IMG/VR virus record: IMGVR_UViG_3300020442_000146
Span: 1-50,498 of that record
Length of the DNA: 50,498 bases
Source of the DNA: a virus
Lineage: Duplodnaviria; Caudoviricetes
Reading direction: 5' to 3' (one strand)
Below are positions 1,963 through 50,498 of this stretch, one piece after another (positions within the stretch are counted from its first letter, which is position 1; each line of letters opens with the position of its first letter). The notes beneath the pieces were generated by a model. It was given only the letters and a program-made list of their open reading frames with translations, did not search any database and had not been told where the DNA came from. Made by a program: the position numbers and the translations under genes.

Positions 1963-1992
1963 ATCTCTTTCCTTTTCAACGGCTTACAAGGA

Positions 1993-2973: not shown

Positions 2974-2984
2974 GGTACTGCTCC

Positions 2985-5317: not shown

Positions 5318-5318
5318 T

Positions 5319-8058: not shown

Positions 8059-8068
8059 CTTATTACCC

Positions 8069-8701: not shown

Positions 8702-8702
8702 G

Positions 8703-9149: not shown

Positions 9150-9150
9150 C

Positions 9151-9525
9151 TTATATCTCCTTTTGATATGAGGCGTGTAGCGGTTCCCAACCATGCGCCT
9201 TCAAGGGTTTCTTCCATCCAAAACGACCTGTAATCGTTAATGCTTCACATCCATAGCTTTTAGCCCAATCAGTAACATCGTTATGCATATCTAACAACTG
9301 ATCTAGCTCACCACCGCCTAAAAACACGTTTAGCACCTTTTTTCTTGGATATACCACAATTTCAGTAACAATGCACCCCCTTGGACTAGGCCACAATTGC
9401 ATACGCCCATCTATAATACCTTCTGCTATATCCTCAAAAACATGCGTACCGCCACAATACTCTAAAGCCGCCTCTATCCAAGGGCGGCAACGTTCTAGCT
9501 CATTTACTTGCGTATCTTTAGGCAT
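9151..9525 (-). CDS. Putative GNAT-like virion assembly protein, copy A
   Basis: 124 aa between tail and ejection genes. Near-identical copy at 47331..47705. Confidence 0.55.
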   Translation of the reverse strand: MPKDTQVNELERCRPWIEAALEYCGGTHVFEDIAEGIIDGRMQLWPSPRGCIVTEIVVYPRKKVLNVFLGGGELDQLLDMHNDVTDWAKSYGCEALTITGRFGWKKPLKAHGWEPLHASYQKEI

Positions 9526-12066: not shown

Positions 12067-12068
12067 TT

Positions 12069-12725
12069 TTATGTCTTCATAATGTAAGCCAAAGCATAGT
12101 ATGGCGGTCTGTTTTCGTGAGAGCTACCACTACCAGTGGAGCCAGTTGTTTTACTAAGAGATCCATTTGGGTTGTAAGTATTTGAGTTATAGTCAATATC
12201 AATACCAGCAGATGGAAAAGCACTCTGTAAAACATAACTATCTGTATAGCTGTGTGTGTGAGATGGTATCTGACTGGTTGTCAATGTTACGCTATCTGCA
12301 CCGCCAGTGTCGCCAACATTATAAGTTCCTGAACTATCGGCGTCTGCATGTACAACAAATTTAGCTGTTAAGTTAGGTGTTCCATTTGTACCATCACATA
12401 AAGCCCAACCAGTAGGTATTGTTGCGACTGTACCGCTCCATAAAATTATACCGCCAACAGGAAATAATAATGATGAGGACGTTTGACCTGCTAAGAGGTT
12501 TATTTCTGTTGCCGTTGCTGTAACGCCATCCATAATGTTTAGCTCAGCCGCCGTTGATGTAACCGCAGCGCCGCCAATCTTCCAAGAGCCAGCCGTTAGA
12601 TCTGGCTCTATTGTGCCGCTCGTTCCGTTTACAGCGTCCGTTATTGTATCTAAAGCCGTGTTGAGCGTTGTACCCCAAGTATTCTCGCTCGATCCCACGA
12701 CTGGCTTGGTAACTGAGATTGCCAT
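12069..12725 (-). CDS. Tail fibre protein with collar domain, copy A
   Basis: PVGGIILWSG...IPTGWALCDGTNGTPNL collar motif and HENRPPYYALAYIMK C-terminus. Confidence 0.85.
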   Translation of the reverse strand: MAISVTKPVVGSSENTWGTTLNTALDTITDAVNGTSGTIEPDLTAGSWKIGGAAVTSTAAELNIMDGVTATATEINLLAGQTSSSLLFPVGGIILWSGTVATIPTGWALCDGTNGTPNLTAKFVVHADADSSGTYNVGDTGGADSVTLTTSQIPSHTHSYTDSYVLQSAFPSAGIDIDYNSNTYNPNGSLSKTTGSTGSGSSHENRPPYYALAYIMKT

Positions 12726-31189: not shown

Positions 31190-31372
31190 ATGACAAAACT
31201 AGAAAAATACTCAAAGGCGTATTATTGCGCCGCTTCGAATGCGGAGGCGCTTCGTGCTTTTGCAGAAACTTTTGGATCGAAAAACCCTGCACTTCTACAT
31301 GTTGTGGAGGATGTTTGTAGATCAATAGACTTAATGGACAAATACATAATGGAGAATAGAAATGGCTATTAA
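31190..31372 (+). CDS. Hypothetical protein upstream of Cas7-like gene
   Basis: Likely start MTKLEK at 31190 after GGAG. Overlaps the next gene. Confidence 0.6.
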   Translation: MTKLEKYSKAYYCAASNAEALRAFAETFGSKNPALLHVVEDVCRSIDLMDKYIMENRNGY

Positions 31373-32144
31373 AAAAGCACCATCATCAACTACACTAGAA
31401 ATTCAACCACTCAAGCAAGGTCGCGTTAAATTACGCATGATGGGTACAACCCCATTGTATTTTAACAGCATGAGCAGCAAAGCCATGCGTGACTTGTTGG
31501 TTGGTGCAGGCAAGAAGACGGCTGCACAAAAGAAAGAAATTAAGCACAATCCAGAACAAGAGTTTCGTGAGAGTGTTTATAAAAAACAGCATGGCGAGAC
31601 ATTGCTATGCTTTCCTGCACCTGGAGTAAAAGGTGCAATGGCAACAGCGGCATTAGAGACAGACGGTATTACCAAGTCTAGTGTGCAACGTCTTATCTTT
31701 TTGCCAGAAACACATATTCAGATTTGGGGTAAGCCTCAGTTAAAGATTGATGTTGTTAGGTCTGCTGACATGAACAAGACGCCAGACATGCGTACAAGAG
31801 CATACTTGCCGCGCTGGTGTGCAGAGGTAGATATAGCCTTTGTGCAGCCCACGTTGTCTGTGTATTCTATTGCGTCACTGTTAACCAATGCAGGATCAGT
31901 GGTCGGCATAGGTGACTTTAGACAAGAGAAGGGTCGTGGCTCATTTGGTTGTTTTCATGTTTTGACAGAAGACAGTATGGGCGACTACCAAGAGGATTGG
32001 GATAGTCTGATGCTTGAAGCTCGTGATGTCCAACAAGAGGCATTAGACAATCCTGAGTACGCTGATCCAGACACAGAAAGTCTAATGCAGTTTATGCAGG
32101 AAGAGCGTGCAAGGCGTGACATTACACTTGTTGCGGCAGAATAA
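31362..32144 (+). CDS. Stand-alone Cas7/RAMP-like RNA-binding protein (Vipr-like)
   Basis: RAMP-type motifs in order: first strand ending GTTPL, FPAPGVKGAM (cf. IPGSSLKGA), and C-terminal G-rich loop GIGDFRQEKGRGSFGCF. Adjacent to a repeat array. Confidence 0.75.
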   Translation: MAIKKAPSSTTLEIQPLKQGRVKLRMMGTTPLYFNSMSSKAMRDLLVGAGKKTAAQKKEIKHNPEQEFRESVYKKQHGETLLCFPAPGVKGAMATAALETDGITKSSVQRLIFLPETHIQIWGKPQLKIDVVRSADMNKTPDMRTRAYLPRWCAEVDIAFVQPTLSVYSIASLLTNAGSVVGIGDFRQEKGRGSFGCFHVLTEDSMGDYQEDWDSLMLEARDVQQEALDNPEYADPDTESLMQFMQEERARRDITLVAAE

Positions 32145-32145
32145 A

Positions 32146-32169
32146 GAGTGGGGCAGCAATGCCCCATTC
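32146..32169 (+). promoter_or_regulatory. GNRA-capped hairpin at the 5' end of the array
   Basis: GAGTGGGGCA-GCAA-TGCCCCATTC immediately after the stop codon. Confidence 0.6.
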
Positions 32170-32173
32170 ATTT

Positions 32174-32574
32174 GGTCAAGGTTAGTCGGTCGAGGCGGGG
32201 ATCGCAAGTTCTGTTAAGTTCGGGTACGGACGGGCGTGTTATGGCGGTCGAGTCATGTTAAGTTCGGGTCTGTTTAGTTGCGTTCGGTTAAGGCGGTCAA
32301 GTCGGGGCGGGGTGATGTACGGTACGGCGTGTTACGTTAAGTCGGGTTCAGGCGGTCGAGTTTAGGTTGGTTGAGGTTTAGCGAGTTGTGGCCTGATAAG
32401 GCGGTCCCGTTCGGGTTTGTTCTGGTACGCTTGGTTAGGTTTGGTCAGATCTGGCGGTTTAGGTGCGGTCGGTCTCGTTACGGCTTTGTGTGGTCCGTTA
32501 CGTTTTGGCTGGGCGCGGCAAGGCGGTCGACACAAGTCAAGTCAGGGTTAGATGAGGCACGTTAAGGCGGTCAA
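32174..32574 (+). repeat. Non-coding G(G/T)Y-NN pentamer array, 7 units delimited by GGCGGT(C/T) (putative guide-RNA array)
   Basis: Delimiters at 32185 (GTCGGTC), 32243, 32292, 32351, 32400, 32453, 32522, 32566. In units 2-7, 46 of 54 pentamers begin G(G/T)Y and all 54 have a pyrimidine at position 3. Confidence 0.85.
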
Positions 32575-32592
32575 ATTAAAAGGAGTAAAATT

Positions 32593-33090
32593 ATGGCTGG
32601 ATTTAAAAAGAAAGATAGACAGAGAATAATAGATGAATACTTAGCGGCAACGGGTAAAAACATGTTTCACCCTGCCGAGTTTGTAGACTGGTTAAAAGAC
32701 AAGCCAGAGCATGAAGCGTATGATTTATTTTATTCTATGAACGATGAAGACGCAGCTAGGCAATGGCGTGTGCAGATGGCAAGGCAAATGGCAAGCGGTT
32801 TGCGTATTGTTGTGAATCATTCTGATCCAGATCAAAAGACTGTTAACATAACGGTACGAGAGTATCCTGCATTTGTTAGTCCTGCGAAAGATCGTAGGCA
32901 GGGCGGTGGTTATCATGCTTTTGATCCAGATGATGAAATATTGCAGCAAGAGTTGCGTAGACAAGCTGCGGTAGGATTGGCATCATGGCTAAACCGATAC
33001 CGTGGTTGCGCTGAAAATATTGGCTTGGATATGCAGCCAATTGAAAGTATTGCAGAGGTCTTACGAGGTGTAGAAGAAGACGCCGCTTAA
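32593..33090 (+). CDS. Hypothetical protein downstream of the array (candidate accessory protein)
   Basis: 165 aa, AAGGAG RBS directly after the last delimiter. H..YDLF...DEDAARQWR..MARQM motif. Confidence 0.7.
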   Translation: MAGFKKKDRQRIIDEYLAATGKNMFHPAEFVDWLKDKPEHEAYDLFYSMNDEDAARQWRVQMARQMASGLRIVVNHSDPDQKTVNITVREYPAFVSPAKDRRQGGGYHAFDPDDEILQQELRRQAAVGLASWLNRYRGCAENIGLDMQPIESIAEVLRGVEEDAA

Positions 33091-36735: not shown

Positions 36736-37137
36736 CTACATTCCATCGTTTTTAGTAAACTGTAAGGTTTTTTCTATCACGGCTATGCGTGATTGTAGCT
36801 TAATGATCTCCATCATATGAGCAGCCATGCCGCCCAAATCTTCGTTGATCATCTCAACATCTTCCCAAAGCTCATCGTCAGCCTCTTCCATATCGTCATA
36901 GAACTCTGCAAGAATGTCTATTATTTCTTGTAAATCCTCTTGGTTTTTCTGCACATCCCTAATTAAATTAGTTCTGTCAGTTGCATTATTCTCAATAGTA
37001 AGAACATTTACCTGCTCTGTTAGGCTTTCAATAACAGAAGCTTGCTGAGAGGCATACCATATGCCACCGCCCACGGTACTGACTATCGCCACTACTGCAC
37101 TTGCAGCAACAGCTATATTTACCTTGGGCAAGTCCAC
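36736..37137 (-). CDS. Membrane-anchored coiled-coil protein, copy B
   Basis: 133 aa with N-terminal TM. Homolog of 1..398. Confidence 0.7.
   Translation of the reverse strand: MDLPKVNIAVAASAVVAIVSTVGGGIWYASQQASVIESLTEQVNVLTIENNATDRTNLIRDVQKNQEDLQEIIDILAEFYDDMEEADDELWEDVEMINEDLGGMAAHMMEIIKLQSRIAVIEKTLQFTKNDGM
36740..36816 (+). repeat. Exact 77-nt repeat of window positions 1-77
   Basis: ATTCCATCG...CTCCATCAT identical. First mismatch is at base 78 (G) versus 36817 (A). Confidence 0.9.
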
Positions 37138-37138
37138 G

Positions 37139-37429
37139 CTAGTAACTACCTTCCCAAACCCTTAGTTTAGCAAACTCATTACTCATAAGTTTTCTTTTTA
37201 GCACTTCTTTAACTGCACCTGTATCTGACCAGCTAACGCCAGCCTCTTTTAGCCACACGCCAAGTAATGCCATATCGACATTACCAACGTGCTTATAATC
37301 AGAACCAAAGCTATTATCAGAATGTTGCCTTGCGTGTTCAACATCCTTCAGCATTTCGTTAGCGTCATGCGTTTTCTTGATGATTAATTTATCATCTTCA
37401 AACTTATATGACTCGCTAATCTTAGCCAT
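37139..37429 (-). CDS. Hypothetical virion-module protein, copy B
   Basis: Likely start MAKISES at 37429. Homolog of 400..702. Confidence 0.7.
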   Translation of the reverse strand: MAKISESYKFEDDKLIIKKTHDANEMLKDVEHARQHSDNSFGSDYKHVGNVDMALLGVWLKEAGVSWSDTGAVKEVLKRKLMSNEFAKLRVWEGSY

Positions 37430-37673
37430 CTTCCCAAGCCTCATTCTCTGGTGTGCTAGGATCATCAGCTTTTAGTGTGCCATCATCGTTTCTAGCACGC
37501 TTCTTTTTTGCTGTTTTCTTTGCAGGCTTTGGGTCTGCTTTTAATATTTCAAAAGCTGTGGGCTTTAACACCATAATCTTTTTTACTTCAGCTTCAGGCA
37601 AATCAACTTCATCACCGCCCTTAACGATACCTTTAGATGTTGAGATGCTTCTATCTTTTACTAATACCTTCAT
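37422..37673 (-). CDS. Small basic protein, copy B
   Basis: Homolog of 695..955. Confidence 0.75.
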   Translation of the reverse strand: MKVLVKDRSISTSKGIVKGGDEVDLPEAEVKKIMVLKPTAFEILKADPKPAKKTAKKKRARNDDGTLKADDPSTPENEAWEDG

Positions 37674-37691
37674 TTCTTTCTCCTTTTAACA

Positions 37692-37713
37692 GTAGGGGCA
37701 AAACTGCCCCTAC
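37692..37713 (-). terminator. Hairpin after capsid gene, copy B
   Basis: GTAGGGGCA-AAAC-TGCCCCTAC. Confidence 0.55.
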
Positions 37714-37724
37714 CTAATATCTTA

Positions 37725-38681
37725 TTATGAAGTTGTGTTATCAGCAATGATGCCGTTTGCAGCTTCATTTTTAGCGCAAAGTGTAAGCTCAGTAACGATT
37801 TGTCTCTGAGTGTTATCACCAGTTTTTGCAAGCTCAGTGTTTTTAGTTGGACGTAGTGTCGCAACTTCCCACTTATCATCTTGCATGATGAAAACGTCAC
37901 GGCTTCTGTTCTCGCGGCTAGGCATGAACTCAATGGTTCCCCACGGAGTTGTGTACACTGCCAAGCTTTTGATAACACGCTCGTCAGATGCTTGCACTTG
38001 TGAACGCTGGTTGTTGTTACCAGTAAAGCCGAGTGCCACGTTCATTTGAAACGCAGACAGATACACAGTGTCAGGCTCCCCACCGTTCTCCCAAATTGAT
38101 TGCATAACTGTGTCAAATTTGGTTTGTGAAAACGCTGTTGGAGTACCATCGTCTGTTCGAGCGTCAGTGCCGTCACCAGTTGGATTTGCACCAGAGTTAC
38201 CTGATTGAAAATCAACATTTGTTTTAATCCAAGACGGTGCGCCTGCCAACTCTCTAGCAGTCGATGCGTTACCAGCCACTTTTGCATTATTGTCAAATAG
38301 CGCTTTCTCTATATCGAGTTTTTGCTCTTTGGCAATTTTTACAATTTGGTAGGCCATCTCACGCTGTCTTCCAGCCTTGTTAAGACCTTCGTCAGTGTCA
38401 GATACGATTACCGCATTTTTGAAGATTTGTGTTCGGTTGTTAAGACGAACAGTTGCAACAGCCGCTTGAGCAGTAGTTGCGTCACCTTCAATATGTGCGT
38501 TTGCAGCACTGTTACGAAGTGTATCAGTCTGCCATTCTACCAATGTATTATTGGCTGTTGTTTTACCACACTTAGAAAAAAATGGTGTGGCCTCTGGAGT
38601 AATATTAGTAATAATATCGCTCAAGTCTTCTCTGATACCTACCTGATCATAGCTATCAAAGGTATTTGCTGGTTGTGCCAT
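37725..38681 (-). CDS. Major capsid protein, copy B
   Basis: 318 aa, colinear diverged homolog of 1006..1962. Confidence 0.9.
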   Translation of the reverse strand: MAQPANTFDSYDQVGIREDLSDIITNITPEATPFFSKCGKTTANNTLVEWQTDTLRNSAANAHIEGDATTAQAAVATVRLNNRTQIFKNAVIVSDTDEGLNKAGRQREMAYQIVKIAKEQKLDIEKALFDNNAKVAGNASTARELAGAPSWIKTNVDFQSGNSGANPTGDGTDARTDDGTPTAFSQTKFDTVMQSIWENGGEPDTVYLSAFQMNVALGFTGNNNQRSQVQASDERVIKSLAVYTTPWGTIEFMPSRENRSRDVFIMQDDKWEVATLRPTKNTELAKTGDNTQRQIVTELTLCAKNEAANGIIADNTTS

Positions 38682-38720
38682 TATCTTGTCCTTTCAACGG
38701 CTTATAGCATTTTGTTAATG

Positions 38721-39698
38721 CTAAGTTTTCATAATTAAGTCGATTGCATCTTCCATTCGACCTGTCTTTTGCAATTTTTGAAATTGCTTACGCTTTAGTG
38801 AGCCTTCTGGATCAGCTACTTTCTTAGCACCAGCTTTTACAACAGGTTTGGCTTTCTTGCTTTTAGCTTCTGCCTTTTTGCGATTTGCAACAATACGTCT
38901 AAACTTCATAGCATCGTTAGCCATTTGGATATAACGTGCATCGGCGGTGGCTGCGATCTCTTCATCACTAAAGCCATATTCTTTGGCGCTATTCATAAGT
39001 GACTGCCAGTGAGCTTGACTCTTTTCTGGATCAGCCAGTTCAGGAATTTTACCTCTGATTATTTCGCCTTGTTCTCTAACAAAAGCTTGGTGCTGCTCAT
39101 CAGCTTGCTGCTGTTGTTGTTGTTGTAGTTGTTGCATTTGCACTTGCTGCTGCTGGTAACTCTGCATATCAGCATCATATTTTGCCCTTTGCTCCATATA
39201 AGCAATGGGGTCACTCTCTGCCAGAGTATGATCTGGTAACTGAGGTTGTGACATAAAACCTTGCTGCTGTGCCTGATTGTACATCTGAGTTATCATTTGC
39301 TCACGTTGAGAGATTTCAGCAGCTTTTTGCTCAACTTGTTTTCGAGCTTCTGCCACTTCTTGAAACCTCTTGTTTATTGCGCTTTGACCTGAATAACTTT
39401 GCTTTAACTGGTCTATTGTTACCGTTTCTTCCTTGCCGTCAGACTTGACAGTGTAATACTCTGGCTCGACAGTTTCTTCTTCAATGTCAGTTGCTTCAAT
39501 ATCAGTATCTAATAATTCTTCATCAGATACCTCTAGCTCATCAAGCTCATCAGTTTCCTCAACTGCTTCCACTTCAACCTCTTCGACCTCTGGAGCTACA
39601 GTTGTTTCTTCCTCAACTTGATTAGTTTCGCCTGTTTGTTCTTGCGCTGGCGCTATGATTTGTTCAATCGCGCTTTCTATACTGTCAGTCGTTTGCAC
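38721..39698 (-). CDS. Scaffolding protein, copy B
   Basis: Homolog of 1993..2973. Confidence 0.85.
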   Translation of the reverse strand: MQTTDSIESAIEQIIAPAQEQTGETNQVEEETTVAPEVEEVEVEAVEETDELDELEVSDEELLDTDIEATDIEEETVEPEYYTVKSDGKEETVTIDQLKQSYSGQSAINKRFQEVAEARKQVEQKAAEISQREQMITQMYNQAQQQGFMSQPQLPDHTLAESDPIAYMEQRAKYDADMQSYQQQQVQMQQLQQQQQQQADEQHQAFVREQGEIIRGKIPELADPEKSQAHWQSLMNSAKEYGFSDEEIAATADARYIQMANDAMKFRRIVANRKKAEAKSKKAKPVVKAGAKKVADPEGSLKRKQFQKLQKTGRMEDAIDLIMKT

Positions 39699-39708
39699 GG
39701 TACTGCTC

Positions 39709-39945
39709 CTATTGTTTACGATCTAATAATGTCTCTGCCGCAATAGCGGCGTCAAGCTGCACTTCGATCTTGTTTAATGCACGCAAAATAGCGTGCGCCT
39801 CTTCACGTTGCTCAACGTCTTGAACACCGCTAGTCGTAAAAAGCCTAATTTGCTCATTACGAACATCCTCAACAAACTGCTTAAAAGCAGTATCGTTTTT
39901 TAACCTTTTGGCATCTTCTGCCTGTATTCTTATTTCTGTTGTCAT
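39709..39945 (-). CDS. Small portal-adjacent protein, copy B
   Basis: Homolog of 2985..3221. Confidence 0.7.
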   Translation of the reverse strand: MTTEIRIQAEDAKRLKNDTAFKQFVEDVRNEQIRLFTTSGVQDVEQREEAHAILRALNKIEVQLDAAIAAETLLDRKQ

Positions 39946-42044
39946 AAGCCTGCTGCTTTAGCGGTCATATCGTTTATTTGCCGCTCTCTTTCTTGCTCTG
40001 CTTTAATTCTAGCTACATCAACCGTTGAGCCATATTGACCTAACGTCCTAGCTGCATCAACATATAAATTTTGTGCCATTTGATCTCTTTTTAGATCATC
40101 CTCCATAGCCATCTCTTCACGCTTTCTAGCATCATCCATCTGCGCTTTTTGCATATCAACTTGCGCTTTAGTTTGAGCCTTCATTGCTTCAGCCTGCACC
40201 ATCATTGACGCTGGGTCTTGCCCCTGACCCTGCTGAGCTAACATAGCTTGTTGCTGTTGCTGCATCTGCAAGAGTTGCATTTCTATCTCTGGTGTAATTG
40301 GTGCAAAGTAACGATCTGCGTTTCTAATACCGCTAGAGGCTAATATATCTGCAAGAGTGTTACGAATGTTTGTAAGAGATACTAAACCATTCATAGGGCC
40401 ATATGTTTGATAAACCATAGTTTGTTGTTGTAGAGCCATAGCTAAAGCATTTGTCTTCTCTTCCTCTCTACCAGTGCCAAGCCCTACATTAATGCTAATA
40501 TCCATATCTATGTCAAAAGCTTTTGGATCAACAGGCTGGAAGCGTCCATTCATACGCATCATAGCTCCGTCTTCCATATTCTTTTGCAGCAATCTTAGCA
40601 TTAAGCCAAACAAGTCTCTTGCACCGTCAGCTAAGTTTCGCACCATCACTTCTACCTGACCTGCTGCGGCCTGCACAGTAGCCTGTACAGCAGCTTTAGT
40701 TGTAGACTGCATAGCATCAGGGTCTAGCCCCATAGAGGCCTTAGTTACGCCTGTCTTGCCTTCTACAAGCTGATCTAGGTACGTTAATGCGCTTAGTGTC
40801 TGTCCAGCAGTAAATGGCACAGCTAAATCTTGCACTGCGCCAGCCTGACGCATACGAACAATAGCACCTATTTCGTTGTTTAGAACATCATCTATATTTA
40901 CTGCACCATCAACTATACCAACTCTAGGATTGTTAGTCATAGCTACGTTATCTAGTATGCCTCTTAAAATAGAGGTTGCTGCGTCCTGATCATCTAAAAC
41001 TAAATCGGCAATACTTCTGCCATAGAATGTGTGGGGTTCAGGGTCTACTTCAAATTTTGCAAAAGGTAATTCGTCTGCTAACTCATAATCTAGCAGCTTG
41101 TACTTCGTTCCACCGCATAGAAACCTATGCAACACAGCAACCCCTGTTCCGTCTATGTCCATCCTCATGTAAGCCTCAGTCACAGTAACTTGCTTCATAG
41201 ATGGATCAGAGCTTGTTTCACTAAAGTTATCTTCATAGCCTTGACGCTCATAACGCTCTGCTTCAGTCATTTCTGAACCTGCATCAAAGCTATCCAACTT
41301 TAAAACATCATCAGGATCATATCCCATAGATATAAGGTCACTAGCTCTCATCTCTGACCTATGAACAACAACATGGGCGTCTTCTAATGTCCTACAGTTT
41401 CTATCTACAAAAAACTCCTCTGGCGGTACGCTTTCTATTTTTAAGCAACCAGCATATGCCTTTCTAGAAACCTTTGCAGAATGAACAGGCGTTTTCATTT
41501 CAGCGCCATCTTCATCTATACTCATCTCCTGCTCGACAGTATGCTCTAAAACAGTTACATCATCGTCCTGCACTAAAAATGTGTACTCATCATCGGATAG
41601 ATTCGTGTAAGTATAAATCTCTGCTTCTGGCATTTCTTCCCAATAAGCTTTGACTATACCCTGTTTTTTAATTAGCGCATCGTGAAATGCATCGTTCAAC
41701 ACCCTATAACCATTGCTACGCTGAAACTCATAATGAACGTAATCAGTCGCCTGCTCTGCCATTGCCACATCTTCAGGGCCATGCGGCATAAACTCAACTG
41801 GTCTTGCAGTGCTTAGAAACACACGCATCAATGAAGGTTTAATAGCGCGAACCGTATCCCTAACTTTAGTAGCAACTACTTTACTGCGCCCATCTTCATA
41901 GCCTATATCTACCTCGCCATCATAATAGCGCTGAGCAACTATTCTATCTTCAGATATTTCACTCTCAACAAAATCTACTGCATCATCTATAGCGTTCTGA
42001 ACAATAGTTTCTATTTCGCGTTCTGTTTTAGCTTTTAGTTCCAT
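39942..42044 (-). CDS. Portal protein, copy B
   Basis: 700 aa homolog of 3218..5317. Confidence 0.9.
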   Translation of the reverse strand: MELKAKTEREIETIVQNAIDDAVDFVESEISEDRIVAQRYYDGEVDIGYEDGRSKVVATKVRDTVRAIKPSLMRVFLSTARPVEFMPHGPEDVAMAEQATDYVHYEFQRSNGYRVLNDAFHDALIKKQGIVKAYWEEMPEAEIYTYTNLSDDEYTFLVQDDDVTVLEHTVEQEMSIDEDGAEMKTPVHSAKVSRKAYAGCLKIESVPPEEFFVDRNCRTLEDAHVVVHRSEMRASDLISMGYDPDDVLKLDSFDAGSEMTEAERYERQGYEDNFSETSSDPSMKQVTVTEAYMRMDIDGTGVAVLHRFLCGGTKYKLLDYELADELPFAKFEVDPEPHTFYGRSIADLVLDDQDAATSILRGILDNVAMTNNPRVGIVDGAVNIDDVLNNEIGAIVRMRQAGAVQDLAVPFTAGQTLSALTYLDQLVEGKTGVTKASMGLDPDAMQSTTKAAVQATVQAAAGQVEVMVRNLADGARDLFGLMLRLLQKNMEDGAMMRMNGRFQPVDPKAFDIDMDISINVGLGTGREEEKTNALAMALQQQTMVYQTYGPMNGLVSLTNIRNTLADILASSGIRNADRYFAPITPEIEMQLLQMQQQQQAMLAQQGQGQDPASMMVQAEAMKAQTKAQVDMQKAQMDDARKREEMAMEDDLKRDQMAQNLYVDAARTLGQYGSTVDVARIKAEQERERQINDMTAKAAGL

Positions 42045-44693
42045 CTATTGCTCCTGTAGTGTTGCCGAAGCTCCAACCAAGTAAGGCGCTATGCTTCTTT
42101 CTATTCTTGCAAAGTTTTTAGGGTTTTTAACATCTAAAAGTAAACTTTTAAATAACTCTTCATCCTCGACCGCACGCATCATTAGTTGTTCAGCTTTATT
42201 TGTTGTTAATCTGCTTAATAAAGCTTTCATTCTTTCTGAAAGAATTTGAGCAGTTTGCAAGCTTCCTCCTGCACTTCCACCACCCATAGCGCCACCTTGT
42301 CGCGCTGCATATATTCTACCGACAATTTCTACAAGTTTGTTTGTTGGGAATGGACTAATTGCGCCTTTTGTAGAACGCCCCACTCTTGCTAAATCTAATT
42401 TTTTTACTTCTTTTGTAATTAAATTTAATCTATTTAGTTCTGCACTTGTATAAACCTGATTAGCTACAGACTTAAATGTTTCATCATTAAGTTGGCTTTC
42501 TAATCTAGTTCCCCTTACTTGTGACGCAGGCAAATCTACATTAGCTGCAACTTGTGGTGTATCTATAGAATTGTTTAAAACTCTTTGAGACAATGCGGAT
42601 TTTATTCCATTTAAAGCCTGACCTGTCGTATCTTTCTTTGCAGTCCTAACTAGGTTAGCCATCTCTATTTGCGGATTTTGAGAATTAAAAATGTTATCTA
42701 AAGCTTGTCTTGTATTTGATTGAGAAAATCTTGCTAAAGTACCAGCTTCTACATTTGCTACCAAGTTTTGCCCTGTTTGAGTAATATCTTCTATTTTTTG
42801 CTTAGTATTTAAAGCGTTCTCTACATCTGTTTTTATAGAAGCAAACTCTGGAGAGTCTAAAACTCTATTATATTTTTGTAAAAAATTATCAGCTTTGCTT
42901 TGATTAAATTTACCATTAGGAAAAACATCTTTATCAAACCTTACTCTTAAAAAGTTTGTTATAGCTCCTATACCTTCATCTCTACCAGCTTCAGAAACTT
43001 CATCGCCAGACAGAGCAGCTTTAAAATCTTTAGTTGATAATAAATTCTCTACATCACTACTTTTAGTTAAGGATTTCTCCAAAGTAAGCTCATCTCTTAC
43101 ATTCGGATCACCTGTTGCTTTTTTAGCAAGCAAACTTCCCACAGTTCCACGAGAAAATTTATCGTGATATATTCTAGTAAAGTCTCTAGCTTCAGCTATT
43201 GCCCTTCCAACATCAGTGGCTAAATCAACATTATTTAAATCTTCTAAAATGTCATTAGCTATTTCATTAGCCAATCTAGCCATATTGCTGTTTGGGGTTG
43301 CGCCAGATGAAGCATCTCTAGACCTTGATCTAAGTTTAGAATATAAATCAAGTAAATCTTTAACTTTTATATCTTTGTTCTTTTTCGCATATTTTTTACG
43401 AAATTGATTAATTTCTGGCGGCATATCTGCTTTAGAAAATTCACCTAAATTTTTCTTTTGAGTAATAACAGCCTGATTAGTTAACGGTGAGCTTATTGTT
43501 TGATTTTTTGGAATACGATTCCACAGTCTATTTCTTTCTACTCTTGCAGCATTTTTAGCTCTTAAAAGCTCTGCGCTTAGTATAACGCTAGACTGCATAT
43601 CATCTGCACCCTCATCTGCTATTTTAGTCGTTGCAGATTGTTGTGCAGCCTTTACATATTGATTAACCCTGTCAGTAAATGCTTTTACTCTTTGCGCCAT
43701 AAAAGCTTGAGTGTCTTGCACATTTCCTTCAGGAGTAAATTCTTTTCTAGCAATTTCATCTGACTCTGCCCTTCTAGCTTCAATTCTTTCTCTTACTAGA
43801 GGGTCTCTTTCCATCGCTTCACGCTCAACCCTTGCAAAATATTCTTCACCTGTTTTTTGCATTGGAGTTAAGTTTAATGGGCTTTCTCCCATTCTGTTCT
43901 CAGCTATGTTTATGGCTGCTTGCCTACCCCCTGCGCCACGCACAAGCTCATCTGAAACAAGTCTTTCTGCACCTGCTTCAGTAAACGGCGCAAGAGCTTT
44001 TTTTGTTCCTTGATACGCATTTGCAATAGGTCTAGCCACATATGCAGCAGGTGGTAAATTTAAAGCAAGATCACCTACTTGCTTTGCCTGATCTACTACA
44101 ATCCTTCCCCCTGCTGGTAATACACCAGTAGCCATACCGCCTGTAAGAGCAGCAATATCTTGAACAGGTTTGCTATAACCTCTGTCAGCAGCCTCACCTT
44201 GAGCAACCCTACCGCCTCCACCAGCTAAAAGCTCTGCTAAAAATCCACTTTTAGTTGCCATCGTGGGATAAATTGTATCAGCAATAGCTCCTGTTATACC
44301 TTGTGCGCCCCTTAAAGCCTTTACACCAGCCGTAAATGGTAAAGCATATGATGCAGCCTCACCTATACCCTTGCCAGTTCTTTCACCAAGATTTTGAGCT
44401 TCGCCTTCTGCGACACTTATATTTGACATATCCATAAGGTTTTTAAGACCAGTTTCAGCCGAACCCGTGTATTGGTCAAATGGATTTATCAAATCCACCA
44501 TGCCACCTATATTCTCTGCAATCTCTTTATTAATTTGCCCCATAATATTACGAAAAGTAGATTTTTTAGGCTCAGCGCTTTCCTGACTATTTGCTAATCT
44601 ATTAGCAATTACAGCTAATTTTGCAGCGTCCTCTTTTCTTCCAGCCGCTTCTGCGTTTCTAAGAGCTTCTAGTGTTTGTTCTAATTGAGACAT
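42045..44693 (-). CDS. Putative large DNA-ejection protein, 882 aa
   Basis: Occupies the slot of the 541-aa gene in copy A. ALRNAEAAGRKEDAAKLA N-terminus. Confidence 0.65.
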   Translation of the reverse strand: MSQLEQTLEALRNAEAAGRKEDAAKLAVIANRLANSQESAEPKKSTFRNIMGQINKEIAENIGGMVDLINPFDQYTGSAETGLKNLMDMSNISVAEGEAQNLGERTGKGIGEAASYALPFTAGVKALRGAQGITGAIADTIYPTMATKSGFLAELLAGGGGRVAQGEAADRGYSKPVQDIAALTGGMATGVLPAGGRIVVDQAKQVGDLALNLPPAAYVARPIANAYQGTKKALAPFTEAGAERLVSDELVRGAGGRQAAINIAENRMGESPLNLTPMQKTGEEYFARVEREAMERDPLVRERIEARRAESDEIARKEFTPEGNVQDTQAFMAQRVKAFTDRVNQYVKAAQQSATTKIADEGADDMQSSVILSAELLRAKNAARVERNRLWNRIPKNQTISSPLTNQAVITQKKNLGEFSKADMPPEINQFRKKYAKKNKDIKVKDLLDLYSKLRSRSRDASSGATPNSNMARLANEIANDILEDLNNVDLATDVGRAIAEARDFTRIYHDKFSRGTVGSLLAKKATGDPNVRDELTLEKSLTKSSDVENLLSTKDFKAALSGDEVSEAGRDEGIGAITNFLRVRFDKDVFPNGKFNQSKADNFLQKYNRVLDSPEFASIKTDVENALNTKQKIEDITQTGQNLVANVEAGTLARFSQSNTRQALDNIFNSQNPQIEMANLVRTAKKDTTGQALNGIKSALSQRVLNNSIDTPQVAANVDLPASQVRGTRLESQLNDETFKSVANQVYTSAELNRLNLITKEVKKLDLARVGRSTKGAISPFPTNKLVEIVGRIYAARQGGAMGGGSAGGSLQTAQILSERMKALLSRLTTNKAEQLMMRAVEDEELFKSLLLDVKNPKNFARIERSIAPYLVGASATLQEQ

Positions 44694-44704
44694 ATTAATA
44701 AACC

Positions 44705-46147
44705 TTAATCGGCTGTTGGAACAAATTGCGGTGTAGTTACGTTAAGCTTTTGCTCATTAGGCAAATTTCTATTAATTAAATTTATTTCATCTGAAGAAAG
44801 ATTTGGCGCTGATTGTATTGTTGCCCTACCCTGCAAAGATTTAAGAAGAGATTTGTAATCTTCTAAATATCGTTTTACTTTAGGTAACTCTTCTGTTGCT
44901 AAACTAATTGATTCAGGTTTTACTCTTGTTTTTCCACTAACAATGTTTTGGTAATGCATCACAGTATCCTCTAAAGCTTTAACCATAAGCTTTGATTTTT
45001 CTATGGCATCAGCAACACCAGTTCTAGTTGAGCTAGGATCAATAGTGTAGTTATCTAAAACCATTTGTCTGGTAAAGTTTGAAGGCCTTCCTTCAACTTC
45101 AACAGTAGCAGCAAGAACAGTATCAGCTTGTAGCTTTCTTAAAGCTGCATTTGCTTCACCAGCTTCATCAAAAATAAATTGTCCTGAAATAGCGTCTGAT
45201 ATTTTATTAACAATATTTTTACCAAAACCAGTAAGTCCTAACGCTTCTGTAGCATCCTTGCCAGCAAATGATCCATCTGACCCATCACCTGCTTTATCGC
45301 TTTGTATATTTAATTTTTCTTCTAAATCCTCAATATTGGCTGGTTTAAATTCAGTTCTTTCATTAGTAGCTATATTATATTTTTCAGCTATACCTGTAAC
45401 TGGATTAGGTACTATTTTAATTACACCATCAACTATACCTACGGCGTCAGCCCTAGATAAATTAAAATTCTTTTCTATTCTAGCAATTTCAGCTTCTTTT
45501 GCGCTTGGAGTAAGCGCAGCTTTTGCAGCATCTCTTTCCATACCGTATTGGTTTGAAAGACCTAAAAGTTTTTTCTTAAAATTAAAATTATAATCAGCTA
45601 AAAATGTTGCTTCCTCTAAACTTAATTGACTTTTGATTTTAGCAAGGTCTATTCCTAATGAATTTTGCAACTCCATTAACTTTACTCTATTGTCAAAATC
45701 AGCGCCTCTACTTAATTCCTGCCTTTGTCTTAATAATTCTTCCTGTTGCAGCATTTTTTTCAATTCAAATTGTTGATTTGCAAGATTTTGACTTGATGTA
45801 AAATCTCTTCCTGCGTCAGCTAATTGCATTTGCCTTTGAAACGCTAAATCAGCCGCAGAAGAAGCTCTAGCCGCAGCCCTTTGCTCACTTTCTATGTCAA
45901 ACATTAATTTGTAAGCATCAGCGCCTTTTAATTGACCTGTACCAACCATAGCAGCAAGCCTATTACCCATAGGCGTACCTAAACCTTTTAAATATTCAAC
46001 AGTTTTATTTTTTGCTCTGTTAGCTGTGCGCTGCTGCTGTATTGTTTGCAGCGCTTGATTAAGACCTCTATCAGGTTCAAATCTTAATGTATTAAATGCT
46101 CTTGCTGCTGCGCCTGCAAAGTCTCTAAAATCATAATCTTTAACCAT
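44705..46147 (-). CDS. Putative DNA-ejection protein, 480 aa
   Basis: Shares only its N-terminus (LQTIQQQRTANRAKNKTVEYL) with 6937..8058. Confidence 0.65.
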   Translation of the reverse strand: MVKDYDFRDFAGAAARAFNTLRFEPDRGLNQALQTIQQQRTANRAKNKTVEYLKGLGTPMGNRLAAMVGTGQLKGADAYKLMFDIESEQRAAARASSAADLAFQRQMQLADAGRDFTSSQNLANQQFELKKMLQQEELLRQRQELSRGADFDNRVKLMELQNSLGIDLAKIKSQLSLEEATFLADYNFNFKKKLLGLSNQYGMERDAAKAALTPSAKEAEIARIEKNFNLSRADAVGIVDGVIKIVPNPVTGIAEKYNIATNERTEFKPANIEDLEEKLNIQSDKAGDGSDGSFAGKDATEALGLTGFGKNIVNKISDAISGQFIFDEAGEANAALRKLQADTVLAATVEVEGRPSNFTRQMVLDNYTIDPSSTRTGVADAIEKSKLMVKALEDTVMHYQNIVSGKTRVKPESISLATEELPKVKRYLEDYKSLLKSLQGRATIQSAPNLSSDEINLINRNLPNEQKLNVTTPQFVPTAD

Positions 46148-46155
46148 GTTTCACC

Positions 46156-46833
46156 TTAAAATGATGGCATACCAGTTGCAGCAGAAGCGGCTGCTGTTAA
46201 ATAATCCATAATACCTAATTGTCTTGTTTGTGTTTGCGTTGTTGGTACTGGTGACGCACCTAATGCAGCTAAAGGTAACTGTAGCTTATTCATTGGTGCG
46301 TTGGCATAGTTGTTGTATTGATTTCTAGCAGAATCAATTAGAGCTTGCATGGCTTGCTGCTGCATTTGCCCTTGACGCATTTGTTGATCACCTAAAGCTT
46401 GACCATAGTTAAAAGATTGTGCGCCCATCCCTGCTAACTGCCCAGCCGCACCTAACTGCCTGCCTAAATCTGCCTGAGATGCGCTTAATGCAGTATTAAA
46501 ACCTTGCTGTCTCATTCTGTTTGCTTGATCAAACATTTGCTGAGTGTAGTTTTTTGCCATCTCAGCTTCAGCTATTCCGTGCCTAGAGCCACCAAACGCA
46601 TTTGCCGCAGTTGCTTGTGCGCCTAGCATATTTTGTGCATTTAATGCCTGACTACCTACATCCCTAAGTGTTTGCTGAACAACTTGGTTTTCATATGGGT
46701 TTTGGTAATTTGCCATTCCTTGCGCAGCAGTTTCATTTAAACCTTGCGCCGTTCTTCCCATAGCACCCATTTGCGCCTGAGATGCTTGATTGTATGGATT
46801 TGCCGTCATTGCTGGGTTTGCTGCGCCTGCCAT
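46156..46833 (-). CDS. Putative ejection/pilot protein, copy B
   Basis: Homolog of 8069..8701. Confidence 0.7.
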   Translation of the reverse strand: MAGAANPAMTANPYNQASQAQMGAMGRTAQGLNETAAQGMANYQNPYENQVVQQTLRDVGSQALNAQNMLGAQATAANAFGGSRHGIAEAEMAKNYTQQMFDQANRMRQQGFNTALSASQADLGRQLGAAGQLAGMGAQSFNYGQALGDQQMRQGQMQQQAMQALIDSARNQYNNYANAPMNKLQLPLAALGASPVPTTQTQTRQLGIMDYLTAAASAATGMPSF

Positions 46834-46834
46834 G

Positions 46835-47329
46835 TTACTTACCCCTTGCCATTGTGCTTCTTGATATAGGTTGCACCCCTATAGGTGAATTATTTGTATA
46901 GCCTGTTGGCGTAAAACTTTCTGCACTTCCCATTGGGGCAGCATTACTGCCTGCTTGACCTGTTTGTGGATTCATAAAAAATGTATCCATATATTGACTT
47001 TGCGCTGGTCTAAGTTGAGCTAAATTTTCTACAGATTGCTCATAAGTTGGCGCAGATGAGTACCCCATAACGCCGCCAGCAAACTCTGTTGCTTCAGGCA
47101 TATATTGACCAGCGCCGCTTTCCATTCCAAAAGCTGTGGCTGCATTTTGCGTGTTTTGAAACGCTGCATCCTGCATTGGCGTAAAAGCAGCTACATCAGG
47201 TCCGTAATAAGGTGTGTAACCTATATTAGATATTTTATCTGCAAGAGCTAAATTAGATTTAGCAGCATCCTCAATGTATGCTGGTATTTCTGTTTTTGTG
47301 GTTTTACCACCACCCTTATTACCGCTCAT
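46835..47329 (-). CDS. Putative internal virion protein, copy B
   Basis: Likely start MSGNKGG at 47329, PYYGPDVAAF motif. Confidence 0.65.
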   Translation of the reverse strand: MSGNKGGGKTTKTEIPAYIEDAAKSNLALADKISNIGYTPYYGPDVAAFTPMQDAAFQNTQNAATAFGMESGAGQYMPEATEFAGGVMGYSSAPTYEQSVENLAQLRPAQSQYMDTFFMNPQTGQAGSNAAPMGSAESFTPTGYTNNSPIGVQPISRSTMARGK

Positions 47330-47330
47330 C

Positions 47331-47705
47331 CTATATCTCCTTTTGAAATGAGGCGTGTAATGGTTTCCAGCCATGCGCCTTTAAAGGTTTCTTCCATCCA
47401 AAACGACCTGTAATCGTCAACGCCTCACACCCATAATGCTTTGCCCAACTTGTAACATCACTGTGCATATCTAACAACTGATCTAGCTCACCACCGCCTA
47501 AAAACACGTTTAGCACCTTTTTTCTAGGATATATCACAATTTCAGTAACAATGCACCCCCTTGGACTAGGCCATAATTGCATATTACCCTCAACAATACC
47601 TTTTGCCACATCCTTAAAATTATGCGTACCACCTGAATACTCTAAAGCCGCCTCAATCCAAGGGCGGCATCTTTCCAGTTCGTTAACTTGCGTATCTTTA
47701 GGCAT
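47331..47705 (-). CDS. Putative GNAT-like virion assembly protein, copy B
   Basis: Homolog of 9151..9525. Confidence 0.55.
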   Translation of the reverse strand: MPKDTQVNELERCRPWIEAALEYSGGTHNFKDVAKGIVEGNMQLWPSPRGCIVTEIVIYPRKKVLNVFLGGGELDQLLDMHSDVTSWAKHYGCEALTITGRFGWKKPLKAHGWKPLHASFQKEI

Positions 47706-48056
47706 TTACCATGTAGCTAGTGCTACCCTCTTCCAAATTGCACTACTTCCATCATAATCGGCAACACAAATATAAATATAATTTGTATCCCAAGCTATCA
47801 TTCCAGTTACATCGCCTACACTACCAGTGTTTGCACTAGGAGTAGGTTGTTTTGTTGCAAGCTGTCGAAAAGCATTATCGCTAGAAACAACTGCATATTT
47901 TTTAGTTTCATCCCACAATATAACGCCATTTTCTGATGGGTTATCGTCTGCGGATTTAAAATATAATTTACCTAAATTACGCTGCAAATAGTTAGTAAGT
48001 TGCCTACCCCATTGCGATAGGTCTTGGCTTATAACTGGCAAAATAGGAGCAGGCAT
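47706..48056 (-). CDS. Tail-associated protein, copy B (short variant)
   Basis: N-terminal ~65 aa homologous to 9518..10177, different C-terminus (WDTNYIYICVA...WKRVALATW). Confidence 0.6.
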   Translation of the reverse strand: MPAPILPVISQDLSQWGRQLTNYLQRNLGKLYFKSADDNPSENGVILWDETKKYAVVSSDNAFRQLATKQPTPSANTGSVGDVTGMIAWDTNYIYICVADYDGSSAIWKRVALATW

Positions 48057-49945
48057 TAACGTGTACCCCCTATTGTAGCCTCAAGTCGCATAATACCTAC
48101 ACGCCAATCAGCAGGCCGCACACCTGTTACCCTCATGCGAACTTGCCTGCCACTAAACCTAGCATCTGTTGGGTTAGCAGGCGTAAATGGGCCATGTGAT
48201 GTTTCTGTATCGTTAGGATGATACCTTGTTTTGAAGGTCATGCTTACATCACCTTGTGTAACCTCATCAGGTATAACTGACGTAACGTACATAATGTTTT
48301 CACCAGTACCAGCCGATACTGGCCCTGTTTCTGCAAAGATTGCACCGTTATCTACGTTATAGCCAACCTCATGCTCTTTTATATTAGCGTGTGTCGTATC
48401 CCAATCAGCCATCATAGGATACCTAAACACGCCACGTTGAACGCCAGACGTTCTTGATAGCTCACCAATCATCCAATGATTTTCATTGTAATCATAGGCA
48501 ACATAACGGTCTATTTCTATGCTGTTAGATGATGGGTAAAACCACCACACTTCGCCATATTGCGGTATGCCCATCGCCCATATTTTGGTTTGCTGAGAAG
48601 TATTAATATCACCAAAGATATAATCATGAACATCGCATTTTATGGTTTGCACTGTGTTACCATTGAACAAAAAGAAGTTTTCTTGCCCAATAAAAAACAC
48701 ACCTCGATCTGTGTCTACCGCTCCACGGCTCGTCACAGTGCCGCAGGAAGTGCCAACTCGCTCGAAGCCATAAACGTAGGGTGGCCCTTGATAACGCGCT
48801 GTGTGGGCGTCTACGTCAGTCAGAATAAGCGTTTGGCCTCTAGTTCTAACCGCTTGCATAATCTGCCCTGCGGTTTGTAACTCTATATCGCCTGCCTCGT
48901 TTGTTGCCGCAGGCGTCCATTGGTTTCGATCTTCTCTGTCACACCAAGATATTTTACGGCTATTACCACCAGAACCTAATGCAAAGATAAAACGCTCTTC
49001 AGTCACAACTAACCCAAGATTAGATAGTGGTGCATTTGTTATGGGTGTAGCTACTACAGCTAATTTAAGAGATGTTTCTGTAACGTTAACATTTTGCTCT
49101 GCATTAGTCGCAGGATAAATTTGTATTGTGACGCCAGTATCGTCTGTGTCAAATCTAAAAAAGCTATTACCAATAGGCAATGTCTTATCAAGTAAAACAG
49201 TCGTTGTTGTCGTGCCGATAATCTTAACTTTTAGTGACGGTATGGTTGTGGCGTCTGCATCTGCGTCAGGGTCAGTTACATTTATAGTAAAGTGATATTT
49301 CTTACCGCTTGTTAAGCCTGTTATAGCTTGCTCTAAGTTTGCAGCCGTTGTGCCTGTCCATTTAGCCTCACCGCCACTTATAGCCCAACCAGTGCCTAGC
49401 GTCCAATCTGTGCCTACGCTAAAGCTGTTGTTTGTTATTAGCTCTGAGCCGCTAACAATATTTAAATCCCACTCGACAAGTCTACCGTCATCATAATGGC
49501 AACCAACCATTAATTCGCCAAAGTTGTCTAATTGCCAAAATGTGGCAGGCTCTGGAATAGCGTTGGAAAGTTGCTGTCTTGGTGTACCCCAAAAACCTAC
49601 ACCATAAGCACCTTTACCAAATCCTGCGCTTACAGCCGCATCTATACGTCCAGTTGCTAAGTTATCTGGCGTAATGTCATAGCACAATCCACCGCCTGTC
49701 ATTGCAACTAATGAATTATGTGAACCGCCTGCTAACCATGTGCTTTGGTTAAGAGCTTCCCAAGCGTGCATACCTCTTATTGGCTGCAATGCAAAATCTT
49801 CTTTTCTGTTTTGCCAACCACCAATCGGACGCAATGAACCGTCTAGCCATCTAACTAAGCTACCCTCACGCCATCTGCCAGATTGCTCGTAGTCTGTTCC
49901 TATTCGGTAAAATCCAGATGGTATATCTAAAGGTACTAAAGTCAT
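48056..49945 (-). CDS. Tail hub/stabilisation protein, copy B
   Basis: 629 aa homolog of 10177..12066. Confidence 0.75.
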   Translation of the reverse strand: MTLVPLDIPSGFYRIGTDYEQSGRWREGSLVRWLDGSLRPIGGWQNRKEDFALQPIRGMHAWEALNQSTWLAGGSHNSLVAMTGGGLCYDITPDNLATGRIDAAVSAGFGKGAYGVGFWGTPRQQLSNAIPEPATFWQLDNFGELMVGCHYDDGRLVEWDLNIVSGSELITNNSFSVGTDWTLGTGWAISGGEAKWTGTTAANLEQAITGLTSGKKYHFTINVTDPDADADATTIPSLKVKIIGTTTTTVLLDKTLPIGNSFFRFDTDDTGVTIQIYPATNAEQNVNVTETSLKLAVVATPITNAPLSNLGLVVTEERFIFALGSGGNSRKISWCDREDRNQWTPAATNEAGDIELQTAGQIMQAVRTRGQTLILTDVDAHTARYQGPPYVYGFERVGTSCGTVTSRGAVDTDRGVFFIGQENFFLFNGNTVQTIKCDVHDYIFGDINTSQQTKIWAMGIPQYGEVWWFYPSSNSIEIDRYVAYDYNENHWMIGELSRTSGVQRGVFRYPMMADWDTTHANIKEHEVGYNVDNGAIFAETGPVSAGTGENIMYVTSVIPDEVTQGDVSMTFKTRYHPNDTETSHGPFTPANPTDARFSGRQVRMRVTGVRPADWRVGIMRLEATIGGTR

Positions 49946-49947
49946 GT

Positions 49948-50498
49948 TTACGTTTTCATAATATAAGCAAGTGCATAATAAGGTGGTCTGTTTTCGTGTG
50001 CGCCACCGCCGCCTGCGTTATCGACAGACAATGTGTGAGTATGTGCGCCGCCACTAGCAATGGTTACAGTGTGAGAGTGTGACCCTGCCGAAGATGTAGT
50101 GCCAGTTTGTGAGCCATTTGGATTATAAGTATTTGAATTGTAATCAATATCTATTCCCGGAACGAGAGCGCTTTGCAGGACATAACTATCAGTATAAGTA
50201 TGCGTGTGCGCTCCTGCACTGTTTGTCGTTCCAGTGTGCGTGTGTGCGCCGCCGCTTGCCGCCGTACCTGTGTGGCTGTGAGCAGGCAGTTCGCTAGTTG
50301 CTAGTGTCACATCATTTGCACCGCCTGTCGCACCTACTGCATACGTTCCGCTACTGTCTGAGTCGGCGTGAACAATAAATTTACCTGTTAAGTTAGGTGT
50401 GCCGTTTGTGCCATCGCATAATGCCCACCCTGTCGGTATCGTTGCAATCGTACCAGACCACATAATAATGCCCCCAGTAGGCATTGCCTTGTTAATAG
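49948..50498 (-). CDS. Tail fibre with collar domain, copy B (5' end off the window)
   Basis: Collar motif, five HxH motifs, HENRPPYYALAYIMKT. Frame is open to the window edge. Confidence 0.8.
   Translation of the reverse strand, partial: INKAMPTGGIIMWSGTIATIPTGWALCDGTNGTPNLTGKFIVHADSDSSGTYAVGATGGANDVTLATSELPAHSHTGTAASGGAHTHTGTTNSAGAHTHTYTDSYVLQSALVPGIDIDYNSNTYNPNGSQTGTTSSAGSHSHTVTIASGGAHTHTLSVDNAGGGGAHENRPPYYALAYIMKT

Follow-up and report, generated by a model that had tools for sequence, protein, structure and literature searches.

A probable VIPR system with a tail-less pentamer guide array in a marine podophage

The IMG/VR virus record IMGVR_UViG_3300020442_000146 was analysed over its entire length of 50,498 bases (the window) for a locus at which a gene for a RAMP/Cas7-like protein, a spacer occupied by a pentamer array and a second gene follow one another, all on the + strand (Table 1). 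An earlier reading of the bare letters, here called the original prediction, had noted a 260-aa open reading frame (ORF) with the motifs GTTPL, FPAPGVKGAM and GIGDFRQEKGRGSFGCF, a GNRA hairpin, a structured non-coding array and a co-directional ORF of 165 aa. It had proposed an RNA-guided system other than CRISPR, and had likened it to VIPR (Viral Interference Programmable Repeat). VIPR was first published in April 2026 as a CRISPR-like, RNA-guided silencer of DNA (PMC13142463).

The three motifs, the hairpin and both ORFs are present as described. The GC-rich stem-loop is followed by a conserved leader (..TTTGGTCAAGG), and a stable hairpin (minimum free energy of -10 or lower) lies 3' of the vipr gene in 41 of 49 distinct relatives, GC-rich in all this variety of stem sequences. 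Scans of the locus for promoter and terminator consensus sequences gave nothing decisive.

Table 1. Features of the putative VIPR locus, in window coordinates; protein landmarks are given by residue.
Feature	Position	Strand	Remarks
vipr gene, 260-aa ORF	31362..32144	+	single-RRM RAMP/Cas7-like protein
vipr protein landmarks			G-loop G182-I-G-D185-F186-R187; thumb R146; extra C-terminal helices 209-259
Stem-loop	32146..32169	+	10 bp, GCAA (GNRA) loop, GC-rich; directly 3' of the vipr stop codon
Spacer between vipr and partner gene	to 32592	+	448 nt, G/T-rich; pentamer array
Leader	32173..32207	+	short degenerate pentamer units and the first junction-like GTCGGTCGA
Guide tract 1	32208..32247	+	8 units, end GGC-GG
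Guide tract 2	32247..32296	+	10 units; with 2 changes in the 99%-identical relative L001
Guide tract 3	32296..32355	+	12 units; L001 copy identical
Guide tract 4	32355..32404	+	10 units
Guide tract 5	32404..32456	+	9 regular units to 32448, irregular 4-nt ATCT, junction GGCGG 32453-32457
Guide tract 6	32457..32526	+	14 units, 13 variable; integrase match 26/26 with 1-nt skip
Guide tract 7	32526..32572	+	9 units; last junction GGCGGTC at 32566-32572
Ribosome-binding site AAGGAG of partner gene	32580..32585	+	8 nt past the last junction
Partner (vap-like) gene, 165 aa	32593..33090	+	helical; invariant GGGY motif (104-107)

The array was located by scanning both strands of the window for runs of 8 in-register pentamers of which 6 or more begin with G[GT][CT]. 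All 44 positions meeting this threshold fall at 32203-32536 on the + strand, and none was found on the - strand. A test free of any motif points to the same place: the 60-nt windows with a period-5 power of at least 4 are five in number, and all five sit at 32231-32396. The median period-5 power was 2.90 within the array against 0.64 over the entire window. As a positive control, the vrRNA regions already known in Escherichia phage SUSP1, carrier of a type II VIPR (Vipr, Vap1 and four vrRNAs), stood out in the same test. Because the register changes seven times, with a shift at every junction, Tandem Repeats Finder made no detection in the array, and a Fourier analysis over the full 448 nt gave a weak signal (period-5 power 1.95, against a mean of 0.75 and a maximum of 2.79 in shuffled sequences). 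The array of the original prediction thus stands, as the only one in the record, while the structure ascribed to it is not confirmed: the fold of its RNA, compared with shuffles, is not meaningful apart from the 5' hairpin (z -1.83), and it matched no Rfam family.

The array consists of seven head-to-tail tracts of 8-14 pentamers each, of the form G-[G/T]-[C/T]-N-N. Base usage was compiled from 377 unique tracts of 72 sources, by a tract caller which itself selects for the pattern: position 1 is G in 94% of units, position 2 is G in 53% and T in 41%, position 3 is T in 58% and C in 37%, and positions 4 and 5 are near uniform. The constant triplet is therefore often GTY, as had been noticed at the outset. 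A matrix independent of the caller, derived from 385 distinct junction contexts of relatives aligned on GGCGGT, agrees with these figures; 5' of the junction it has G every 5 nt (80-100%), then G/T, then T/C. The last unit of a tract reads GGC-GG, and the following tract begins on the final G of that unit as GTC-NN. In this way two neighbouring guides have the invariant heptamer GGCGGTC in common, and the register shifts by -1 per tract because one G is shared at the junction. Only these 7 nt join the tracts; no tail, hairpin or other, was found between them. In divergent relatives (L065-L067 and L070-L073) other junction words occur, GTCGG-TT and GGCAG-TT, with GGCAGTT seen in L070-L072.

A model of the 260-aa protein was built with AlphaFold (AF2) from an alignment of 86 sequences, and reached a mean predicted local distance difference test score (pLDDT) of 95.8 and a predicted template-modelling (pTM) score of 0.88. 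Its elements are, in order, strand beta1, a small helical bundle, helix 1, a long beta-hairpin forming the thumb, a second helix, a glycine-rich loop, the last strand and the extra C-terminal helices. A Foldseek search of the PDB returned 74 matches with E values of 0.001 or lower, headed by Csm3/Cas7 subunits of type III-A and type VII complexes (top rows: E 1.6e-6, probability 1.0, template-modelling score 0.38-0.51), so that the structural comparison proposed with the original prediction yielded the RAMP/Cas7 fold it had named. Also in line with that prediction, no Cas model was found by PADLOC among 43 ORFs scanned, and no CRISPR-like tandem array is present.

Among PDB sequences, the best match of a single-sequence search was entry 36pp_D, 'SUSP1 Vipr protein' (E 0.052), and a profile of the 86 sequences retrieved SUSP1 Vipr with an E value of 4.3e-8, as the sole match below 0.5. 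The SUSP1 gene was located in KT454805. An hhalign comparison of the 260-aa protein with its product gave a probability of 97.2% and an E value of 3.3e-11 over 53 columns, in which SUSP1 R138, D177, W178 and R179 correspond to R146, D185, F186 and R187 of the phage protein; R146, D185 and R187 are invariant or nearly so among the 86 relatives. In SUSP1 these four residues contact G1, G2 and Y3 of the triplet (10.64898/2026.04.26.720927). The phage protein has no Pfam family and matches phrog_4652, of unknown function, among PHROGs (E 7.5e-13).

G and U are the two keto bases, and an arginine-to-carbonyl contact at position 2 of the unit would be expected to take both. Relatives L065-L067 have N in place of F186 in the G-loop and T at position 2 in 80-93% of units, a hint only. 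The replacement of W178 by F186 was considered as the cause of G/T at position 2 and found unsupported, relatives with W (L070-L073) still having T in 41-62% of units.

The protein belongs to a large family, with 1,647 relatives at E values of 0.001 or lower in a word-indexed search and 2,107 representatives at 50% identity, many from marine sources. Linkage was counted in 75 related viral loci. A pentamer array follows vipr on the same strand in 71 of them; the other 4 have at most 33 nt of downstream DNA, too short for the test, so that the adjacent 5-nt-periodic array which the original prediction had proposed to look for in homologues is there in every testable case (71/71). None of the 75 gave an array call on the minus strand. 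The gene order is vipr-array-partner in 52 loci and vipr-partner-array in 9, which are the most divergent (45-67% identity); in 10 the contig ends before the partner gene, and in 4 there is no downstream DNA. The partner gene was found in all 61 loci of sufficient length. Since the flanking genes are not conserved, vipr, array and partner gene travel together as a module.

In isolated phages, tblastn detected 30 distant Vipr homologues, 25 in Mycobacterium and 5 in Gordonia phages (27-31% identity); the locus itself had no megablast match in the phage collection. In Gordonia phage Ecliptus (L137, 2116-2376) a GGY-NN array with GGCAGG junction words lies directly 3' of gene 19, which encodes the Vipr homologue, the array being placed between the genes for the tail assembly chaperone and the tape measure. 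In Mycobacterium phage Donkeykong (L138, 991-1290) a strong period-5 signal lies just upstream of the Vipr homologue gp49; the coding sequence annotated over this signal, gp48, could be a mistaken gene call on a guide array.

The variation of the arrays is guide-like. Pairs of tracts of the same length are either nearly identical or unrelated. The window and its relative L001, whose Vipr is 99% identical, have only tracts 2, 3 and 6 in common, which indicates that arrays change by whole tracts. In 118 pairs of near-identical tracts the change per unit was 0.007 at position 1 and 0.064-0.096 at positions 2-5: G1 alone is fixed, while positions 2 and 3 drift within K (G/T) and Y (C/T). Among contigs of relatives assembled from RNA libraries, one deletion falls between two junction repeats, and two insertions each measure exactly 5 nt. 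Such insertions lie at 32406 and 32449 in a related contig, the latter beside the irregular end of tract 5 (32449-32456).

Marine RNA-library contigs from 3 studies cover the 3' end of vipr and the hairpin (31941-32186), and one run contains a variant array over 32245-32657, most of the array. The contigs over the vipr 3' end stop at 32165, 32181 or 32186, just past the hairpin, a weak hint of an RNA end.

These observations bear on a quite different explanation, by which the periodic stretch is a DNA element (origin iterons, a packaging site or an array bound by a protein) beside a protein that uses no RNA guide. The G/T-rich short repeats do adjoin replication and recombination genes at 27-31 kb (primase-helicase, SSB, exonuclease, resolvase), and the RNA-library contigs fall short of direct proof of transcription. 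Against this stand the strict strand asymmetry, with 0 minus-strand calls in the window and the 75 loci, and the constant co-direction of the array with a homologue of the RAMP-fold Vipr; moreover, variable NN positions with turnover of cassettes, and a 26/26 gapped match of one guide to a foreign gene (see below), are unexpected of iterons. A DNA element is therefore considered extremely improbable.

The partner protein has 164 homologues, with an invariant GGGY motif. Its model is helical (AF2, pLDDT 82, pTM 0.41). No Pfam family and no PDB sequence match were found for it, and the only PHROG is a weak one of unknown function (E 0.0022). Fold searches gave a best E value of 1.5 with Foldseek and a best Z of 4.4 with VIA-align, the latter on a helical hairpin only, and the ESM Atlas contains for it only unnamed viral clusters. 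In six public gene calls (P0271, P0273-P0276 and P0286) the partner gene is extended upstream into the array, to 181-228 aa instead of about 165, and part of the array is therefore annotated as coding in databases.

Targets were sought for the guides by joining the NN dinucleotides with one skipped base, according to the published rule, and scanning both strands. The 8-unit seed of guide 6 has matches in 45 viral loci. In one of them, L101 in a Roseobacter-group provirus record of 41 kb, the ten remaining variable positions also match, for a total of 26/26, or 27/28 when the constant GG is included; the next-best seed locus reaches 21/28, and the chance of such an extension is about 45 x 4^-10 = 4e-5. 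The site falls in the gene of a tyrosine integrase with Arm-DNA-bind_3, Phage_int_M and Phage_integrase domains, at the peptide SLAHNVGTKVERAYNRGD, and the skipped bases are third positions of codons. The bases read by guide 6 are positions 1-2 of the codons for LAHNVGTKVERAY, in the catalytic-tyrosine region of the P4-type integrase. In a scan of 88 kb from the Roseobacter group, this guide reaches 26/26 at a skip of 1 and 17/26 at a skip of 0 or 2, and the best of 200 shuffled guides scores 19. At the same site, homologous integrases of Phaeobacter, Ruegeria and Aliiroseovarius match at 23, 24 and 22 of the 26 positions, and in 4 of 5 loci checked the integrase is closely preceded by a tRNA-Ser(GCT) gene. 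The predicted target belongs to small islands that have inserted at this tRNA gene in genomes of Phaeobacter, Ruegeria and Aliiroseovarius-like bacteria.

The Ruegeria island (L141, genome G002, 211-7078) occupies about 6.9 kb at tRNA-Ser(GCT), with 20 nt of the tRNA end directly repeated at its two borders. Besides the P4-type integrase it encodes a Mob_Pre relaxase, a DUF3987 primase-like protein and AbiEii, and its G+C content is below that of the flanks. In the perfectly matching record an AAA_25 helicase gene (G001 37799-38926) adjoins the targeted integrase, and the primase-helicase of the phage (27113-29002; Zn ribbon, Toprim, AAA_25) is 28% identical to its product over 290 aa. By portal protein, the closest isolated phage (49% identity) infects Octadecabacter, a member of the Roseobacter group.

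The system may also be a real VIPR whose natural target is not this integrase, the guides acting on other phages, other VIPR systems or host genes and guide 6 resembling a common integrase motif. In favour of this, the perfect match is confined to a single record, and scans for the exact pattern of guide 6 gave 0 matches in both genome_contigs and metagenome_contigs; the match in the Ruegeria island (24/26) is imperfect, the target record has 61.5% G+C and the phage 42.2%, and none of the other six guides matches the same element. On the other hand, the extension is hard to obtain by chance, and the match is in codon phase within the most conserved motif of the enzyme. The variant of guide 6 in the sister phage L001 decodes to a second integrase-like peptide, LA[HQ][KN]VGA[KN]VV[HQ]AY. 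A guide reading only codon positions 1-2 would be indifferent to the G+C content at wobble positions, and a recombinase is likewise the target of a published VIPR (10.64898/2026.10.15.759431). A target other than the integrase is on balance rather unlikely.

For the remaining guides the search was less productive. The full pattern of guide 3 gave 0 matches in viral and metagenome contigs, and the two matches of its 8-unit seed do not extend (19 and 17 of 24). Guide 2 matches at 18/18 in an unrelated 486-aa ORF with the skips on codon position 2, and this was treated as chance, because about one such match is expected by chance. No guide has a target in the phage itself, and 317 guides compared with 455 kb of related loci gave no enrichment above the null.

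Taken together, the data are best explained by a VIPR system carried by a marine podophage that probably infects a Roseobacter-group bacterium; we assign to this a probability of roughly 0.88. VIPR, to which the original prediction had likened the locus, is described in print (PMC13142463; 10.64898/2026.04.26.720927), with a mechanism such as that prediction had proposed; the protein is a homologue of SUSP1 Vipr, and one guide has a perfect target under the 1-nt skip. On the published mechanism, one + strand unit comprising vipr, array and partner gene would be read, and the array RNA would be bound by one Vipr protomer per 5-nt unit, each protomer burying the constant G-K-Y triplet and presenting the NN dinucleotide. 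The dinucleotides would pair with double-stranded DNA, every third base of the target being skipped, and the bound filament would block transcription. By analogy with the VIPR of SUSP1, the phage would silence the island integrase during infection, and a resident island, satellite-like or mobilisable, would be kept from excising.

Several points weigh against this interpretation. The hhalign alignment spans only the C-terminal 53 columns, so that the N-terminal half is unaligned and SUSP1 residues H17, K33, R39 and K82 cannot be mapped, and the fold library, which ends on 2026-04-08, is without any VIPR structure. The guides abut via GGCGGTC and have no 3' tail or pseudoknot of the kind found in SUSP1 vrRNAs, and the partner protein has no likeness to SUSP1 Vap1 (hhalign 0.3%). 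The RNA-library contigs over the locus cannot show transcription, strand or ends, and parts not covered by them are uninformative. A target was found for only 1 of 7 guides, guides 1, 4, 5 and 7 having been scanned in a limited set of DNA; for guide 6 there are, in addition, the single perfect provirus record, the empty exact scans and the gap in G+C already mentioned, the host being itself inferred.

That the ribonucleoprotein acts on RNA, binding or cutting the transcripts of rivals instead of silencing double-stranded DNA, is improbable. The nearest solved folds are indeed the Csm3/Cas7 subunits of RNA-targeting complexes, and the SUSP1 VIPR is able to pair with single-stranded RNA (10.64898/2026.04.26.720927). 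In the characterised VIPRs, however, the functional target is DNA, on either strand, and the filaments formed with RNA are incomplete (PMC13142463; 10.64898/2026.04.26.720927), and Pfam and PADLOC scans revealed no nuclease partner at this locus. The orientation of guide 6 does not decide the matter: it carries the antisense-strand sequence of the integrase, and its pairing partner could be the coding DNA strand as well as the mRNA.

Within the VIPR interpretation, the marine clade could constitute a distinct type, a proposal which we regard as tentative and somewhat less than an even bet. In such a type only G1 and the base classes K2 and Y3 would be read. Guides would be delimited by the GGCGGUC junction, the -1 shift of which would end one filament and seed the next, possibly without cleavage of the RNA. 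A partner of unknown fold would replace the known vaps, and roseophage-like podoviruses would pin small tRNA-Ser islands, some with Abi-type defence, by silencing their integrase.

The locus extends a class of RNA-guided systems, known for some months only, into abundant marine phages, and guide 6 with the P4-type integrase of Roseobacter-group islands offers a concrete and testable guide-target pair outside E. coli and Pseudomonas. The pair suggests that VIPR systems have a general strategy of silencing the recombinase of a rival element. Compact design rules for multiplexed guide arrays could potentially be drawn from the junction GGCGGTC, which needs no tail, and from the relaxed G-K-Y scaffold. 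The published picture of VIPR is not overturned; the locus is a solid new example and not a new kind of system.

Elsewhere in the record, two copies of the structural module (major head, scaffold, portal, virion and tail-fibre genes) occur, at 1-12456 and at 36740-50476 of the window, with 71-90% nucleotide identity between them. Instead of one genome of 50.5 kb, the record may be a join of two related strains whose genome measures about 36.7 kb.

Compared with known systems, the protein has in common with Cas7/Csm3 of type III-A and type VII CRISPR-Cas, its best solved structural matches, the RRM core, the thumb and the glycine-rich loop. Identity is 10-16%, however, and the window has no CRISPR repeat-spacer array, no Cas5/6/10/11 and no other cas gene. 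The step also differs, VIPR advancing by 5 nt with three bases buried and Cas7 by 6 nt with one base flipped (PMC13142463).

Seven VIPR types have been described, with 'a related consensus' to GGY and with 'staggered arrays with overlapping vrRNAs' among them, while small RNA sequencing confirmed only the hammerhead-interspersed and single-guide architectures (PMC13142463). Arrays of overlapping vrRNAs and triplets other than GGY are thus shared by these other types and the present locus, a comparison which is based on their description in the text only. In October 2026 a genomic language model found further 5-nt arrays, with triplets GAC, CAC, WGT and TGH (10.64898/2026.10.21.760802). These likewise lie beside Vipr-like folds and have non-GGY triplets, some degenerate at one position; neither G-K-Y nor the GGCGGTC junction is among the motifs named for them in the accessible part of that preprint. 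Marine or Roseobacter VIPR systems are not named in the accessible parts of the VIPR preprints, and the word 'marine' is absent from the main text of PMC13142463.

The closest known relative is the type II VIPR of phage SUSP1, and the likeness of the Vipr proteins is at the profile level only: tblastn of the phage collection gave no SUSP1-like match. Several differences separate the two systems. The triplet is G-K-Y here and GGY in SUSP1. An invariant 3' tail caps each vrRNA in type II, with a pseudoknot in the SUSP1 clade, and is a feature of that type and not of all types (PMC13142463). Unlike in SUSP1, the array lies between vipr and the partner gene, which is itself unrelated to SUSP1 vap1. 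Vipr is 260 aa long, with an extra C-terminal helical part, against 195 aa in SUSP1, and W178 of SUSP1 is F186 here. Shared by both are a small single-RRM RAMP protein with a thumb arginine and a G-loop of the form GxGD-aromatic-R, 5-nt units made of a constant triplet and NN, and a two-gene phage locus devoid of cas genes. The SUSP1 system silences the excision recombinase of its satellite, with the skips at wobble positions (10.64898/2026.10.15.759431), and guide 6 of the present array fits the same pattern, a 1-nt skip at wobble positions in the recombinase gene of an integrated element.

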